In this document: piece by piece, positions 1 through 50,482 of the stretch
Layout of the letters: every line of letters begins with the position of its first letter
How positions within the stretch are numbered: position 1 is the stretch's first letter
Source: Alphaproteobacteria bacterium
GTDB taxonomy: Bacteria; Pseudomonadota; Alphaproteobacteria; RF32; CAG-239
DNA length: 64,000 bases
Direction of reading: 5' to 3'
Assembly (NCBI GenBank): GCA_015062535.1
Contig: SUUK01000002.1
Coordinates: 250,493 to 314,492, forward strand
Translations under genes and position numbers: made by a program
The notes under the pieces: generated by a model
Told to the model about the DNA's origin: nothing
The model's database searches: none
What the model saw: only the letters and a program-made list of their open reading frames with translations

Positions 1-435
1 GCTAATGAGGTTTAACTTAAGATCCCCAAAAAAAGGATTAAGCCATTTTTCATATAAGCCAATTTCTCTCTCAACAGTTGATTTTTTATTCTTTCTTTTA
101 ATATGAGGTTTGTAATAATTTTCAAATAAATCTGAAAAAGTTATTTCTTTAAGTTGTTTTTGTTTTAAGGCTTCCTCATTAGCTATTTTTTCCTGTTGGC
201 GTTGTTCTCTTTGTTCTTTATAAGAAAAGGCTTTACCAGTCTCAATATCTTTAATAAGGGCTGAACGAATGTTGTAAACTTCTTCGGCTGTATATCCTTC
301 TGACTTCCAACCTATAGTTTCTTCACGTCTTACACCATTAACAGTATAACGAATAGAATATGATATATCTTTTTTATTTAAAATGTGTCCGTAAGTAACT
401 TTTTCTCTGACACCTGGAAATTTATTTTTTCTCAT
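1..435 (-). CDS. Tyrosine recombinase/phage integrase, N-terminal part (runs off the window start; not in the ORF track)
   Basis: Manual translation from ATG at 435 is open to base 1: MRKNKFPGVREKVTYGHILNKKDISYSIRYTVNGVRREETIGWKSEGYTAEEVYNIR...ITFSDLFENYYKPHIKRKNKKSTVEREIGLYEKWLNPFFGDLKLNLIS. This resembles an integrase arm-binding domain followed by a core-binding domain. RBS AGAAAGGA upstream; lies beside a tRNA fragment. Catalytic domain is outside the window. Confidence 0.8.
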   Translation of the reverse strand, partial: MRKNKFPGVREKVTYGHILNKKDISYSIRYTVNGVRREETIGWKSEGYTAEEVYNIRSALIKDIETGKAFSYKEQREQRQQEKIANEEALKQKQLKEITFSDLFENYYKPHIKRKNKKSTVEREIGLYEKWLNPFFGDLKLNLIS

Positions 436-594
436 TAAAAATCCTTTCTTGTTTTTCAATTTATCCTCAGTATATCCCCTTTGGATTGCAAAGAAAATGT
501 CGCTACGTTACACGTAGATACGATTTGGAGAAAAAAATTTTAAAAATAAGTGATTGTTTTTGTTTGTTTTGTGTATCAGTGTGTGTAAAATTTG

Positions 595-643
595 CGGTTT
601 GTGGTACCGGTTGTCGTCGGTTCGAGCCCGATCGTTCGCCCCA
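595..643 (+). pseudogene. 3' half of tRNA-His(GTG), attachment-site copy
   Basis: CGGT-TTGTGGT-ACCG anticodon arm (GTG), variable loop TTGTC, T-arm GTCGG-TTCGAGC-CCGAT, acceptor strand CGTTCGC, discriminator C, CCA. No D-arm or 5' acceptor strand upstream. Confidence 0.85.
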
Positions 644-1445
644 GATAATGCCCTAGCTTGTGCTGGGGCTTTTTTTTGTGCGAACAATCGGGCTCTTGCA
701 AGTTCTCGCCCGTCTTGTTTTGTAGGGCTCGCTTTTTAATAAAAGCTTGCCAACTTCACTTCGGGCAAGTCATTGTAACATTTGCATTGACGCCGTTTCC
801 GGCTAATGCAAATTAACAAAGCCTGATAGTTTATGGCAAAAACAATTCACTGGATTGTTTTTGCTCATAAGCTCGTTCGCCCCAGATAATGCCCTAGCTT
901 AATGTTGGGGCTTTTTTTGTGCGAACAATCGGGTTCTTGCAAGTTCTCGCCCGTCTTGTTTCGTAGGGCTCGCTTTTTAATAAAAGCTTGCCAACTTCAC
1001 TTCGGGCAAGTCATTGTAACATTTGCATTGACGCCGTTTCCGGCTAATGCAAATTAACAAAGTCTGATAGTTTATGGTAAAAACAATTCACTGGATTGTT
1101 TTTGCTCATAAGCTCGTTCGCCCCAGATAATGCCCTAGCTTAATGTTGGGGCTTTTTTTGTGCGAACAATCGGGCTCTTGCAAGTTCTCGCCCGTCTTGT
1201 TTCGTAGGGCTCGCTTTTTAATAAAAGCTTGCCAACTTCACTTCGGGCAAGTCATTGTAACATTTGCATTGACGCCGTTTCCGGCTAATGCAAATTAACA
1301 AAGTCTGATAGTTTATGGCAAAAACAATTCACTGGATTGTTTTTGCTCATAAGCTCGTTCGCCCCAGATAATGCCCTAGCTTGTGCTGGGGCTTTTTTTG
1401 TGCGAACAATCGGGCTCTTGCAAGTTCTCGCCCGTCTTGTTTCGT
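633..1445 (+). repeat. tRNA-linked tandem repeat, 241-bp period, 3 full copies plus one partial
   Basis: CGTTCGCCCCAGATAATGCCCTAGC starts at 633, 874, 1115 and 1356. Copies are near-identical; each holds a terminator-like hairpin with a T-run plus several further hairpins. Confidence 0.97.
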
Positions 1446-1535
1446 TTATCTGTTTTTAATATATCGGTTTTATAGGTTGACATAAGGGGGAGAAGATAAT
1501 AGTCTGTTTTTAGGATTTTTTTATTTTGGACTATT

Positions 1536-2075
1536 TTGATGACTTGGACTTTTTTTATTCGTAAATTAAGAAGCTTTGCATTTGGCTCGACAGATGCTTT
1601 GCTTTTTGATGATAGATTTATTATTGATGATATATATTTTAAGCGCCGTTTAAAGTTTCGCAATATTGATAAATATGAATTATCAAAAATGAAAGTTAAA
1701 GATATTAAAAGGTGTACAGGAGATGGTAATCACTCTTTGTATGATGTTGAGGCTTATAAATATCTTGATGGTGCATATAAAGAATATGATGAATATTGTG
1801 AATTTCACAGAGCACATGGTCATGAAGAAATGGATGTTGCGCATTATGATGCGTTGATAAAAAGTATTGAAGAAAATGGGTATGACAATAAACACGTTAT
1901 AATTGTTGATTATAATGATGTTGTTAAAGATGGACAACATAGGTCTTGTTGTTTGCTCCATAATTTTGGTCCCGATTTTGAAGTTCCGGTGCTAAGGGTT
2001 AAGCTTGCTAAAAGAACTTTAATTAATAAACTTATGAGATTTTTCTATAAATATTTTGTGGGGTTTGTAGATTAA
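1536..2075 (+). CDS. Hypothetical protein with ParB/sulfiredoxin-like motif, possibly 5'-truncated
   Basis: LIKSIEENGY...IIVD...VKDGQHR resembles the ParB N-terminal signature; no clear RBS; in-frame stop at 1500. Confidence 0.5.
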   Translation: MMTWTFFIRKLRSFAFGSTDALLFDDRFIIDDIYFKRRLKFRNIDKYELSKMKVKDIKRCTGDGNHSLYDVEAYKYLDGAYKEYDEYCEFHRAHGHEEMDVAHYDALIKSIEENGYDNKHVIIVDYNDVVKDGQHRSCCLLHNFGPDFEVPVLRVKLAKRTLINKLMRFFYKYFVGFVD

Positions 2076-42392: not shown

Positions 42393-42692
42393 TTAAAGGG
42401 GAAAATTTGAGTGTCTAGAGCGACCTTTGCGGGTCGCTCAAAATTCATTTACTTCTTTGTAAACTAAAATTTTGAGTGTCCTTAAGCTCATCTCTATCCA
42501 TCTCAAATTTTCCGCCTTTAAGTGTCTAGGGTGACCTTTGTTGGGTGTTCAAGATTCATTTACTTCTTTGTAAACTAAAATTTTGAGCACTTTAAAGCTC
42601 ATCTTTATCCATCTCAAATTTTCCGCCTTTAAGTGTCTAGAGTGACCTTTATGGGTGCTAAATTCATTTATTTCTTTGTAAACTAAAATTTT
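42393..42692. repeat. Inverted-repeat-bounded element expanded as a 111-bp tandem repeat (about 2.6 copies)
   Basis: AGTGTCTAG at 42410, 42521 and 42632; left end TTAAAGGGGAAAATTTGAG is complementary to CTCAAATTTTCCGCCTTTAA (42502-42521, again at 42613-42632). Confidence 0.9.
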
Positions 42693-42783
42693 AAGACATT
42701 TGACAAAAAATGTTGACATAAATCTAAAAATGTGGTATTTTGCGTGCTAGTTATTTGTTTATATGTTTTTTGAGGAGAAGAAA

Positions 42784-46288: not shown

Positions 46289-49200
46289 TTAAAATTTATA
46301 TTGCATTCCGGCATCTATTGTTATTCCATCAATAGCGCCAAATTCTTTTTCAATATTTCCATATAAGGTTATATTTTCATAATTATATGTTGCATTTAGG
46401 GATAAAACACCTCGATTAGAGTTTTGTTTTTTGATAATATCAAAGTTGTTATTCATTGCAACTATTGAACCTTTTAAGGCTTTATCAGGTTCTAAAAACT
46501 CAACATAATATATTCCGCCAATTTTTAATTTTAATGATTTATCTTTATCAAAAGAAAACTCTTTGGTTAAATATGAGCCAAGTCCTAGTTCTAGTGATGT
46601 GGCATTGTTCGATTTTATGTTAAGTGCATTTTCTTTATTTTTTTCTGAAATATCTTCTTGATAGTAGTTAATTAGGTTTAGTTCTGCAAGTGGCTCAAAT
46701 TTTAGGGAGTTTGCAAGGTTTAGTGTATAACGAACTTCGTTATTTAATCCAAATTGATATTCGTTATAATCAGCAGAATTTTCACCGGTTAGTGTTTTTC
46801 TATCATATGAGTTGTCATTGTATCCGGCATGTAGTTTTGAATACCACTTTAAGCCGTTATTAAAGTCATAACCAAATGGCAACCACAAGCCAAATTGATT
46901 GGATTTGCGTTTAGAATGGTCATCATAATCTGTTTTTAATTGACTGATTGATGCACCCAAACCATAAGTTATGCCAGAAGTTGTTTTATTTTTTAATAAA
47001 CCATAAGCGCTATGTGCGGTTCCTTTACTTTCTTCTAATGATTTATCAGAATCGTTTGAAATATCTATGAACTTATAACCTGCAACATAGTTTTTGTTTG
47101 GTTCATTAAATAGGATATCACTAAACTGGCGATTTAGGTTTTGGTGAACAATTTGGTTTTCTCTTCTAAATGATGGGAGAATGTTGTTTCCAGTTAAAGT
47201 ATCTATTTTTTTGTTTAAGCTAGATGAAGTTGAAGCTGTTTTTAAGTTATTGTAAAGTGCTAGATTTTTCTTTTCTTCGTAGTTTTGTTCTAAGAAGTTT
47301 GCAACACTTTTATTTGTTATTAGGTCATTAAAGTTTTGACGAGTTAAAACAACATCATGATTTTGGCTATCTTTTGAAACCAAAGATGCATTAAACATTG
47401 CTGATTTTGACTTTAAGTTTAGCTCAGATAAGTCGTTTGCTTTAAGTGAGTTAGAAAGAGTATGGTTATTTTCAAAATTGTCCATGAGAGGGGAATTTGT
47501 GACAGATAAATCTCCTTTTATCGTGTCGCCAAAGAATTTACCAGTTGCTCCAAGTATTACCTCACCTTTACCCATATCATTAAAGTTTGTAACAGATTGA
47601 GGAGTGCGAGAGCCATAGATATCTATCATATCACCTGTTTCGGATTCTTTTTCTTCTCCATTAAATGTGATTGTACCTGTATTTTCTAGGGTAGCATCAT
47701 CTTCTAAGTATATACCTTTTCCAGAGCTTGCATTTGTTATGGTTATTGTTCCGCTATTTTTTACACTAGCACCATTTTCGGCATATATACCATAGGCTGT
47801 TCCGCCAATTTCTGATGATGGAGTAAGTGTTTCGTTTGTTTTTTCGTCTTTATATTCTTGGCGATAGATATTTATTTGACCGCTATTTTCTATTTTTGAA
47901 AATGCTTCTCCGTAAATACCAACAGCTGTACCATTTCCTAAGTTGTTTATGTTTATAATTCCGCTATTGGTGATTTTGTTAAATCTTCCACCACGAAGTC
48001 CTGTTGTTATGCCATCTCCAGTATTTATTAGGTTTATAGTAGATTGTACACCGGTTTTGCCTAAGGTTTCGTGAGCATAACCTTCTTCGGTGATGTTAGC
48101 AATAACTCCATTGGCATCTTCTTCTGGCATATACATACCATATACATCACCATTGCCTTGATTTATAATACTGATTGTACCAACGGCTTTTCCTGTGGGA
48201 TGTCCTTCTTCAGTTTTTCCGCCATAGTGCAGTCCATTCCATAATTGTTGACCTCCGTACATACCATAAACATTTCCGGTGCCTTTATTTCTTATTGTTA
48301 TATTACCCTCTACGTAATCTCCGCCACCTGATGCAGCATTGATGGCAAACCATTGTTGAGCATTGCTTTCAACATCCTTGATATCTTTTTGAATATTTAT
48401 TCCATAGATATTTCCGTTACCTTTAGAATCTATGTTAATATTAGCAATAGCTTCACGTCCTAAGTAGAATTGGTGAGATGTTGCATTCATTGCTGCCATA
48501 TAGCCACCAATACCATATATATCGCCATATGATTCGATATTTATGTCACCATAGGATTTTCCACCGGTTATGGCGATAGCATTGTAGGCTCTGTCATCTC
48601 CAAAAATACCATAGGTTTTACCAGTTCCTTTATTTGTTATATTTATTTGACCATGAGCAATACCACCATCTGAACCTTCTGAATTTACAGCTTCCCATGA
48701 ATTTTGTGCATCTAAAATTTTTGAATATATACCATATACTTCACCATTTTTTTGGTGAGTAATATTTATAATGCCTGTTGCTTCAGAGATGGGGTTTATT
48801 TCATCTTCATAGCGTTTTCCGTCAACAAGAGCATTTGTTACATGACGTTCGCCGTACATACCTATGGTTTTTCCGTTTCCGGAATTGTTTAAATTAATTT
48901 CTTGATAGTCATCAGGGTGTACATATACAGAATATAGGTTATATACGTCTTGGTCTGTTGAATATACACCATAGAGGTCTTCGTCACCAGTGTTTTCTTT
49001 TTCTGTATTACCAACGGCTACACAAATGTTGTTTGATTGCTCAAATCCCTCTGGGCATTCAATTATTAGTATGCAGACATTATCTTGTAAGAAATAGCCG
49101 TCATTACATTCTGTACATACATTTGCTGTTGGGCTGTATGCAATACAATTTGGAACATGAGAATGTGGTAAGCATTCTTTTAGTAGAGTTTCTCCTGATA

Positions 49201-50482
49201 AGCAGGTATTTCCTGTTTCGTATTGATTTTCGTTACATAAAGTTAAATAGTTTGAACCACAATCTGTTGGCTGGCATTCATCATCTTTGGTTATTGTATA
49301 ACCTTCATCACAAGTATTTAATAAGCACTCATTACCAACTAGAGCATAATTTTCATTACATTCAGAACAAGTATTAGATGTAGGGCTATATGTTTTGCAG
49401 TTTGGAACATCTGTATGGGGTAAACATTCTTTTAGTAAAGTTTCACCAGATAAACAAGTATTTCCTGTTTCATATTGGTTTTCGTTGCAAGAACTTAAAT
49501 AATTTTCACCACAAATGGTTATTTCGCAAGTATTTCCAGTTAATGTATAACCATCATTACATATTGCGCATGCATCTTCTAATGGACTATATGTTTTGCA
49601 GTTTGGAACATCTGTATGGGGTAAACATTCTTTTAATAAATTATTTCCAGATAAACAAGTATTTCCTGTTTCGTATTGATTTTCGTTGCAGGAACTTAAA
49701 TAATTTTCACCACAAACGTTTGGTTCACAAGTGCTTCCAACTAATGTAAATCCCTCATCACAGATGATTGGTTTACACTCATTTCCGACAAGCTCTTCAC
49801 CCTCTGGGCAAACGATTGGTTTACATTCGTTTCCAACAAGCTCTTCACCTTCAGGGCAAACGATTGGTTTACACTCGTTTCCAACAAGCTCTTCACCATC
49901 TGGGCAGATGATTGGTTTACAAATTCCATCTACACGTTCTTGTCCTTCTGGGCAATCTATTTGTTCGCATTTGCCATTTACAAGTTCTTCTCCGTCAGGG
50001 CAAGTAATTGGATTTTTATTATTAGAATCATTAGATGATGAGCCTCCACCACCTCCGCCTCCGCCGGCAAGGGCTGCGATACCTGCAACTGCTAAACCTG
50101 AAGCAATATAAATCCCCGTATTGCTGTCATCGGAAGACTTATAAATACTTTCTTTTTTAGTGGTAGATTTTTGAGTTGTTAGTTTTTGGTTTTTAAATTT
50201 TTTTGTGCAAGGGTGGTTTGTTTTTGCACCAAGAGATTTTATTTTACGATATGCAAAAATGTCATTTTTTGATATAGCAATGCATAGTGCAGAATTGCCT
50301 TCTTTATCAACCGAATCGAGATTATAACCACGATATAAATATTTATGTATGGTTTGGATATCACCTGTTCTTGCTTTGTGATATACAAATTCTGCAAATG
50401 ATATAGCTTTTGCGTTTTCTATATTTAAGAAAAAGCTAAATAAAATAAGGCTTATTGATAAAATATATTTTTTAATAATCAT
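46289..50482 (-). CDS. Large autotransporter/adhesin with ankyrin-like N-terminus and Cys-rich repeats
   Basis: Signal peptide; GYNLDSVDKEGNSALCIAI; IASGLAVAGIAALAGGGGGGGG; Cys repeats; YGIY passenger repeats; barrel end DAGMQYKF. Confidence 0.82.
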   Translation of the reverse strand: MIIKKYILSISLILFSFFLNIENAKAISFAEFVYHKARTGDIQTIHKYLYRGYNLDSVDKEGNSALCIAISKNDIFAYRKIKSLGAKTNHPCTKKFKNQKLTTQKSTTKKESIYKSSDDSNTGIYIASGLAVAGIAALAGGGGGGGGSSSNDSNNKNPITCPDGEELVNGKCEQIDCPEGQERVDGICKPIICPDGEELVGNECKPIVCPEGEELVGNECKPIVCPEGEELVGNECKPIICDEGFTLVGSTCEPNVCGENYLSSCNENQYETGNTCLSGNNLLKECLPHTDVPNCKTYSPLEDACAICNDGYTLTGNTCEITICGENYLSSCNENQYETGNTCLSGETLLKECLPHTDVPNCKTYSPTSNTCSECNENYALVGNECLLNTCDEGYTITKDDECQPTDCGSNYLTLCNENQYETGNTCLSGETLLKECLPHSHVPNCIAYSPTANVCTECNDGYFLQDNVCILIIECPEGFEQSNNICVAVGNTEKENTGDEDLYGVYSTDQDVYNLYSVYVHPDDYQEINLNNSGNGKTIGMYGERHVTNALVDGKRYEDEINPISEATGIINITHQKNGEVYGIYSKILDAQNSWEAVNSEGSDGGIAHGQINITNKGTGKTYGIFGDDRAYNAIAITGGKSYGDINIESYGDIYGIGGYMAAMNATSHQFYLGREAIANINIDSKGNGNIYGINIQKDIKDVESNAQQWFAINAASGGGDYVEGNITIRNKGTGNVYGMYGGQQLWNGLHYGGKTEEGHPTGKAVGTISIINQGNGDVYGMYMPEEDANGVIANITEEGYAHETLGKTGVQSTINLINTGDGITTGLRGGRFNKITNSGIININNLGNGTAVGIYGEAFSKIENSGQINIYRQEYKDEKTNETLTPSSEIGGTAYGIYAENGASVKNSGTITITNASSGKGIYLEDDATLENTGTITFNGEEKESETGDMIDIYGSRTPQSVTNFNDMGKGEVILGATGKFFGDTIKGDLSVTNSPLMDNFENNHTLSNSLKANDLSELNLKSKSAMFNASLVSKDSQNHDVVLTRQNFNDLITNKSVANFLEQNYEEKKNLALYNNLKTASTSSSLNKKIDTLTGNNILPSFRRENQIVHQNLNRQFSDILFNEPNKNYVAGYKFIDISNDSDKSLEESKGTAHSAYGLLKNKTTSGITYGLGASISQLKTDYDDHSKRKSNQFGLWLPFGYDFNNGLKWYSKLHAGYNDNSYDRKTLTGENSADYNEYQFGLNNEVRYTLNLANSLKFEPLAELNLINYYQEDISEKNKENALNIKSNNATSLELGLGSYLTKEFSFDKDKSLKLKIGGIYYVEFLEPDKALKGSIVAMNNNFDIIKKQNSNRGVLSLNATYNYENITLYGNIEKEFGAIDGITIDAGMQYKF
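49061..50002 (-). repeat. Intragenic Cys-rich repeats: six 48-bp units (49715-50002) and three ~201-bp units (49061-49714)
   Basis: CPEGEELVGNECKPIV-type unit x6; 67-aa CGENYLSSCNENQYETGNTCLSG...C unit x3, conserved at DNA level. Confidence 0.93.

Follow-up and report, generated by a model that had tools for sequence, protein, structure and literature searches.

The window examined here, a stretch of 64,000 nucleotides from an Alphaproteobacteria bacterium (contig SUUK01000002.1), carries near its start a tRNA-linked repeat (TLR) array, at positions 632-1445 of the + strand, in which a 241-bp unit is repeated head to tail. TLRs have been described in Escherichia coli, where their members are the 178-bp tyrT repeats, also known as RtT RNA (rttR, Rfam RF00391), and rrA, rrB and rrF behind rRNA operons (PMC8144298, citing Egan and Landy 1978 and Rudd 1999). 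As stated in an earlier note made on this DNA from its letters only, the array holds 3.4 near-identical copies, with 97% matches and no indels (Tandem Repeats Finder, score 1545). A repeat search of the window set the copy starts at 632, 873 and 1114, giving three complete units (632-872, 873-1113 and 1114-1354) and a fourth, partial copy of 91 nt (1355-1445). Whole 241-bp units at this level of identity, with no unique spacers between them, led us to reject a CRISPR array, in agreement with the same note.

At the start of each unit stands TCGTTCGCCCCA, a copy of the 3'-terminal 12 nt of tRNA-His (632-643, 873-884, 1114-1125 and 1355-1366), which sequence reading and local alignment found identical at 12 of 12 positions in all four copies. 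An intrinsic terminator hairpin with its T-run follows (650-677, 891-918, 1132-1159 and 1373-1399), as described for the unit in the earlier note. The next element is GCGAACAATCGGGCTC, the reverse complement of the acceptor 3' strand plus T-stem of tRNA-His (15 of 16 positions matching, one mismatch), and behind it stands a T-arm-like hairpin, CGGGC...GCCCG; according to sequence reading and folding, the inverted copy and the hairpin together occupy 680-712, 921-953, 1162-1194 and 1402-1434. The rest of each complete unit is a structured module of 159 nt, termed U in the following, which was matched by a covariance model (R1, see below) at 714-872 (137.9 bits), 955-1113 (138.3 bits) and 1196-1354 (140.3 bits). 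Besides the four terminators inside the array, the terminator scan yielded a fifth at 1578-1597, where shuffled versions of the region gave 1.6 on average, and a scan of the region for promoter-like sites returned none within the array.

The unit is heavily structured, as had been proposed. Its + strand folds at -102.3 kcal/mol (z = -9.3, with none of 200 shuffles as good), 16.6 kcal/mol below the value for the - strand (-85.7 kcal/mol, z = -6.9). In the predicted minimum free energy fold of 678-884, the inverted tRNA-His copy pairs with the tRNA-tail copy that follows it, forming a closing helix GCGAAC/GUUCGC and leaving the tail CCCA unpaired. The copies of the unit differ from each other at eight positions or more, and the earlier observation that such differences fall in loops or keep G-U pairing was borne out: the terminator loop is either TTGT or TTAAT, depending on the copy, four of the four substitutions in predicted stems exchange C and T opposite G and thus preserve a G-U pair, and one further substitution is unpaired.

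No tRNA was called in the window by ARAGORN. The tRNA-His upstream of the array is present only as its 3' 49 nt (595-643), from the anticodon stem to CCA, and this piece together with the following GAT is a 52-nt direct repeat (595-646, + strand) that we identify as an attR attachment site from local alignment and from contigs breaking at 595. The partner copy of the repeat lies 7.3 kb upstream inside an intact tRNA-His of the source genome, which is labelled G000 here (G000:C10:243745-243820; other G numbers denote relatives, X numbers sequencing runs and L numbers loci). Between the two repeats are genes for a tyrosine integrase, a Prim-Pol/DUF3987 protein (primase-helicase-like), a DEDDh exonuclease and a PD-(D/E)XK protein. 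The 5' part of the integrase gene occupies 1-459 of the - strand and runs off the start of the window (open reading frame, ORF; the full protein of 394 aa matches PF00589 with an E value of 1.4e-33). Contigs of the runs X7, X8 and X14 pass from base 595 straight into an intact tRNA-His 5' half, and the strains concerned therefore lack the island. In G000, an integrative island of 7.3 kb has thus split tRNA-His and left the array isolated behind the attR remnant. The earlier statement that the array adjoins tRNA-His holds for the native, displaced 3' end of the gene, but in G000 a remnant of 49 nt is all that remains of it. The arrangement with an intact tRNA directly upstream of the array also occurs in the relatives G004, G020, G060 and G062.

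Assemblies of metagenomes from short reads commonly mishandle tandem repeats, and the copy number in the window may be inexact. Nevertheless, it is extremely unlikely that the array is an assembly artefact or that it arose by collapse or expansion of a single-copy sequence, a point the earlier note had named as decisive. In run X1, the array pieces reach a depth of 45-99, i.e. 1.6-3.4 times that of the flanks (27-29), and a contig of run X14, which comes from a different study, spans a unit junction (it goes back 239). The differences among the array copies and the independent assembly of arrays of the same design in at least eight other genomes also speak against an artefact. The length of the array varies: a contig of X8 holds a shorter version, with 402 nt in place of the 756 nt of the window, a second strain in X1 has a form that stops after the first 90 nt, and the arrays of G004 and G020 comprise 1.35 units. 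The array is therefore real and length-variable.

The module U consists of four helices and invariant single-stranded motifs. BLAST with the unit gave matches in 13 of 24 sister genomes, many of them at contig ends; 16 genomes from other families were without a match. The covariance model R1 was built from 23 U copies, for which RNAalifold proposed 27 pairs, compensatory changes being present at 18. Within the genus, 30 of 36 genomes gave R1 matches, which amount to 250 copies, between 0 and 51 per genome and seven in G000. In a sample of 151 genomes from the order, with at most 19 candidates scored per genome, the model matched 842 times; 133 genomes were positive and represent 19 of the 20 genera of one family, and the single genome sampled from a second family of the order had no R1 match. 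An 18-mer pattern for U proved too degenerate to be informative on distribution, since it hit at least 120 loci and, of those listed, eight were BLAST-similar. In the 64-kb window, Rfam gave no match at gathering scores, nor is the body U represented in that database; around the array (window 400-1700), only chance-level small RNA matches appeared at E<=10.

The covariation analysis among homologues suggested in the earlier note showed that the structure is kept by compensatory changes. In 82 distinct U copies, 95.1% of the cells at paired positions can pair compared with 78.2% in shuffles, and two-sided changes were observed at 23 of the 27 pairs. The covariation score was 0.475, whereas shuffles gave 0.170 (none of 500 reached the observed value) and sliding the partners gave 0.063 or less; these figures lean high because the alignment was fitted to R1 and the copies are kin. 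Among 2138 paired cells, G-U occurred 120 times and A-C 33 times, an excess which points to folding of the sense strand, either as RNA or as single-stranded DNA. At least 90% identity was found at 42 of 158 U positions, 24 of which lie outside helices, and the conserved unpaired positions include CGTA near the 5' end, AACT.C..T.CGG.CAA, and CT preceding the last hairpin. Of 47 U copies, 44 are intergenic. When ORFs around these 47 copies were called crudely from stop to stop, no orientation bias of the kind expected for 3' untranslated regions emerged: the upstream ORF was co-directional in 16 cases and opposite in 27, and the corresponding numbers for the downstream ORF were 24 and 21.

U is found after genes for tRNA-His, Ala, Lys, Ser, Glu and Phe, the tails of which are re-copied. 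The unit, linked to tRNA-His in the earlier note, is not special to this tRNA. When the best U copy of each of 32 genomes was considered, ten had a tRNA gene (His, Ser, Lys or Ala) on the same strand 61-82 nt upstream, with its last 12 nt recurring after U, and two more were accompanied by the tail of tRNA-Met or tRNA-Phe with no tRNA within reach. Among 40 distinct U copies collected first, eight precede the last 12 nt of the same-strand upstream tRNA (His, Lys, Phe, Ala, Glu), the three copies of the window being additional. From other genomes, 14 loci were picked for tandem or high-scoring U matches, and in this biased sample 11 have a same-strand tRNA directly upstream of U (His in two cases, Ala in nine). 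A U array of 3.5 units of 232 bp stands behind tRNA-His in another genus. The re-copied tail in other U hosts is 12-16 nt of the own tRNA, and at the Lys and Glu loci the inverted copy of the tRNA has degenerated. The same tRNA may carry different bodies: behind Ser(tga) we observed U in G042 and G015 and an unrelated body, B (see below), in G000, and behind Lys(ctt) a sense U in G006 and G016 and an antisense U together with B in G000 and G004. Antisense U also occurs at tRNA-Met and tRNA-Arg genes of G002.

Two side observations concern tRNA-linked copies of U. At L023 in G007, U behind tRNA-Phe bears a nested insertion of 24 nt (GTCGAGGAGGCTCGACACCCATAA-like) in the region of the third helix, and this short hairpin word also flanks a second U copy of the genome (L011). 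An odd 74-nt 'tRNA-Val(gac)', the 3' end of which (GTTACCTCTACGGTCCACCA) is repeated, was called by ARAGORN at L020, L024, L193, L205 and L218; antisense U stands beside it at L020 and L205. Instead of a functional tRNA, this may be a tRNA-like element.

The design of the array is repeated within G000 at seven or more further tRNA genes (Ser-tga, Val-tac, Trp, Arg-acg, Met, Lys-ctt and Lys-ttt), each followed by 1-2.3 units and many of them in tandem. The common order is tRNA, terminator, inverted tRNA 3' part, short spacer, 5' half of the T-arm, body, remaining tRNA 3' end and terminator. At six of these genes, namely Ser(tga), Val(tac), Trp, Arg(acg), Met and Lys(ctt), the body is B, a sequence of about 70-95 nt (CTACAAGCGAAAGG...GAGCGCCAGTG...GCGAAATCA) that lies in the T-loop of the spare tRNA 3' copies; all nine copies are downstream of the tRNA genes and on the tRNA strand (L166-L171 and L199; G000:C2:98875-99500, C11:137900-138524, C10:227950-228652, C14:236793-237350, C14:324950-325537 and C14:100641-101450). 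In its layout B agrees entirely with E. coli RtT, and some short motifs are common to both, but there is no significant similarity between them. In the Lys(ctt) units, the antisense U adjoins B, and Lys(ttt) has a third body. A strict count, demanding that the last 12 nt of a tRNA recur with at most one mismatch within 1200 nt downstream, found 4 of 41 tRNA genes compared with 0 of 41 upstream, a value that is too low because most tail copies of family B have diverged. A different picture was seen at tRNA-Ser(gga) (L172, G000:C10:219633-220200), which is trailed by tandem partial self-copies from the anticodon arm, each with a terminator and with no structured body; these look like stacked att remnants.

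U can be recognised as a discrete, precise insertion. In G024, the word CTCCCTTACCTC^CCCCGCCAAGGGGGGAG, which resembles repetitive extragenic palindromic (REP) sequences, has 51 empty pattern matches compared with 0 for the control, and in three cases it is filled at the caret with A[CTTGC...CTGCGAG] in the absence of any duplication. At L033, the sequence without U is the exact 3' end of tRNA-Glu, and an orthologous intergenic site holds a repeat cluster of 490 nt including U in G000 and 65 nt in G004. The ends of U are only CTTGC...GCGAG, and the left flanks differ between copies (GTTCG, CAAAT, CCTCA, CCCGT and others). The REP-like repeat CTCCCTTACCTCCCCCGCCAAGGGGGGAG that serves U as a landing site in G024 (e.g. 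L175-L185) has at least 51 copies there and none in G008. L178 of the same genome retains 5 nt from the start and 4 nt from the end of U, a possible footprint of the module.

The locus thus has the TLR design, with U as a discrete, structure-conserved module for which filled and empty sites exist and whose copy number varies. We consider it probable that it is a TLR array with U as a mobile structured body, expanded by unequal recombination. The earlier note had offered a structured non-coding RNA array or a tRNA-targeting non-autonomous element, and this proposal is supported by U following several tRNAs, re-copying their tails and inserting elsewhere. U would arrive by insertion into a GC-rich hairpin, above all into the T-arm of a spare tRNA 3'-end copy, and would spread in this way within genomes of one bacterial family. 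The number of units would then rise and fall by unequal homologous recombination between terminal direct repeats of 90 nt; the layout of 3 x 241 + 91 is the expected product of such crossing-over, with which the varying copy number among strains and genomes is also consistent. In island-free strains, the array lies directly behind the promoter and gene of tRNA-His, and by analogy with the E. coli TLRs its transcription would occur by terminator read-through only. The predicted fold suggests that the read-through RNA would have ends paired like an acceptor stem and a free CCCA tail, a tRNA-like end that may guide trimming.

Several observations weigh against this interpretation. Insertion alone does not explain the inverted tRNA copy, and the His units have U after the 3' strand of the T-stem, in contrast to the T-loop position in Ala, Lys and Glu. 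U shows neither target duplication nor long inverted ends nor a conserved flanking target word, and no transposase or recombinase tracks it: Y1_Tnp (PF01797) was found in two of five genomes searched and in none of G000, G008 (28 U copies) and G014 (32), and the IS110-type DEDD domain in none of the five. The structure and the 24 unpaired positions have been kept across 19 genera, which is more than expected of a decaying selfish repeat and fits a selected RNA equally well, and the 82-copy alignment is model-fitted and made of related sequences. Lastly, no sequence model ties U or B to E. coli RtT. The RtT model (RF00391, gathering score 45 bits), which recovered four matches of 133-137 bits in E. 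coli tyrT as a positive control, was absent from the 20 matches obtained for window 400-1700 at E<=10 and gave none at E<=0.1 in seven TLR loci of G000 and none at E<=0.05 in seven U loci; with nhmmer, the E. coli RtT body had no match in G000 at E<=10, and the best value for the body B against tyrT was E 0.74.

Other ideas on the module and the tRNA copies were dropped. A miniature inverted-repeat transposable element was rejected because filled and empty sites show no target-site duplication and because the ends of U are only CTTGC...GCGAG, and a palindrome-associated element derived from IS200/IS605 was rejected on the absence of PF01797 from the copy-rich genomes G008 and G014 and on the varying left flanks. 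A guide resembling the IS110 bridge RNA was dropped on inspection, the variable hairpins of U differing between copies that share tRNA-His (G000 compared with G004 and G020). An origin of the inverted copy by reverse transcription from a primer-binding site was likewise abandoned, the complement of the terminal CCA being absent from the inverted copy in the tyrT units and in the His units of the window; no search for a reverse transcriptase was made.

Apart from a mobile TLR body, the units could be genes for a selected structured RNA that is read through from the tRNA promoter and excised by tRNA-processing enzymes, which would recognise the mimicry of acceptor stem and CCA, the dispersed copies being secondary. 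This explanation, which overlaps partly with the preferred one, is possible but on balance unlikely. It would account for the strong covariation of U, the conservation outside its helices, the predicted closing helix with its CCCA tail, the His-linked arrays in two genera, the preference for G-U over A-C, which favours the sense strand, the G-U pairs preserved in the array and the more stable + strand fold. The RrA/B/F TLRs of E. coli, moreover, are reported to be transcribed by read-through and processed (PMC8144298). However, with a strong terminator closing each unit and promoter-like sites missing from the array, distal units would rarely be made, and G-T pairs would also be expected from a strand-specific single-stranded DNA form. 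U also stands antisense to the tRNA at Lys(ctt) in G000 and G004 and at Met and Arg in G002, it sits inside REP-like repeats where there is no tRNA, and the inverted tRNA copy has decayed at the Lys and Glu loci.

The integrase island adjoining the array and the tRNA-tail copies, which are what integrases leave behind, invite yet another explanation, namely that miniature integrase products have been stacked at the 3' end of tRNA-His as att-bearing stubs after deletion, in the manner of accretion by cis-mobilizable elements (CIME); the partial copies trailing tRNA-Ser(gga) would be a parallel. We judge this very unlikely because the island core is 52 nt long and begins in the anticodon stem while the array re-copies 12 nt starting 37 nt further 3', because arrays are present in strains and genera free of the island, and because the array ends vary by locus; the same design recurs, furthermore, in E. 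coli TLRs and at many tRNAs with unrelated bodies. We see hardly any chance that each unit encodes a small protein of 51 aa, comparable to tpr, an ORF annotated within the tyrT repeats of E. coli. ORFs are indeed present at 658-816, 902-1057 and 1143-1298, and the array of G060 also has an open frame of this kind, but the start codons vary between copies (TTG or ATG in the terminator loop), the frame is lost in G004, a Pfam match is lacking, and the substitutions are compensatory for helices.

TLRs have been known since 1978 with their origin unexplained and a function known at most for three rRNA-linked members, and the only paper treating them that we found in a full-text literature search was PMC8144298. 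The present locus places the TLR design far from enterobacteria, with a body that is family-wide (19 genera), supported by covariation, new to Rfam, and precisely inserted at sites of which empty counterparts exist. We tentatively put forward, as a conjecture that may well be wrong, that TLRs in general are footprints of small structured modules that insert where a spare, folded-back tRNA 3' end forms a T-arm; U would then be the first body caught both tRNA-linked and freshly inserted. If this were true, the tyrT repeats of 1978, family B and U would be products of one hairpin-targeting insertion process, the enzyme of which has not yet been recognised. In a bolder variant, based on the modelled fold, the acceptor-stem mimic with its CCA tail and the conserved four-helix domain would form a working tRNA-like RNA for RNase P, the CCA-adding enzyme or a synthetase. 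The locus makes testable both the mobility of TLR bodies and the making and trimming of TLR RNAs by the tRNA machinery. For annotation it is relevant that arrays of this kind interrupt assemblies, look like att sites and give rise to fragments of pseudo-tRNAs.

A few further features were recorded. Directly after the array, at 1536-2075 of the + strand, lies an ORF of 179 aa that has no Pfam match and contains a DGQHR motif, presumably recalling nucleases of the ParB/sulfiredoxin type. Elsewhere in the window, tandem units of 111 nt (two to three copies) are present at 42406-42695, and periodic repeats of 182 nt and 48 nt at 49131-49969 possibly reflect repetitive coding sequence. At G000:C2:50144-50465, ARAGORN called a tmRNA gene of the permuted, two-piece type (tag ANDNFAPVAVAA), which fits an alphaproteobacterium.

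Compared with known systems, the array resembles the att repeats left by integrases at tRNA genes in that segments of the tRNA 3' end recur downstream as direct repeats, and a true attL/attR pair of 52 nt exists at the very same tRNA-His. Unlike att repeats, its units contain no recombinase gene, re-copy 12 nt only, include an inverted tRNA copy and a structured body, and do not need the island. REP/REPIN-type repeats and repeats of the Rickettsia palindromic element type are dispersed, structured, short and non-coding. U shares with them that it is rich in hairpins, mostly intergenic and multi-copy, that sister genomes differ widely in it and that it breaks assemblies. In contrast to REP sequences, it is a four-helix module with invariant unpaired motifs rather than a simple palindrome and itself inserts into REP-like hairpins; a third of its best copies are tRNA-linked with the tail re-copied, and neither a RAYT nor a Y1 gene tracks it.

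In E. coli, 22 TLR units are distributed over ten loci with one to five units each, and the last 18-19 bp of a unit repeat exactly the 3' terminus of the tRNA or rRNA lying upstream; the account given in PMC8144298 names no function save for three rRNA-linked members, the read-through transcripts of which bind Hfq and CsrA. The array of the window departs from these repeats in its shorter tail copy of 12 nt, in the position of the body, which follows the T-stem in the His units and lies in the T-loop in E. coli, and in the strong terminator that every unit has of its own. U, with its 159 nt, has no detectable similarity to RtT, is more heavily paired and is also dispersed away from tRNA genes. 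The likeness to tyrT, which the earlier note had pointed out, is one of anatomy and was verified on the sequence of the E. coli locus: the tyrT unit reads inverted T-arm copy, CAA, GGTTCGA, body and ATCCTTCCCCCACCACCA, and the Rfam consensus of RtT pairs the inverted copy with the tail copy, as the predicted fold of 678-884 does in its closing helix with a free 3' tail. Both systems are found in tandem on the same strand behind a stable-RNA gene, the 3' end of which is re-copied in each unit, and in both the body splits a T-arm that has an inverted T-arm copy upstream of it. The array also starts within the 3' end of tRNA-His, directly downstream and in the same orientation apart from the island that intervenes in G000, its unit end equals the 3' end of that gene over 12 nt, and its 3.4 units, together with the seven or more further tRNA genes of G000, lie in the range of one to five units at several loci per genome. 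Judged by its sequence, the locus is thus a TLR in the published sense, built around a body from outside the RtT sequence family.

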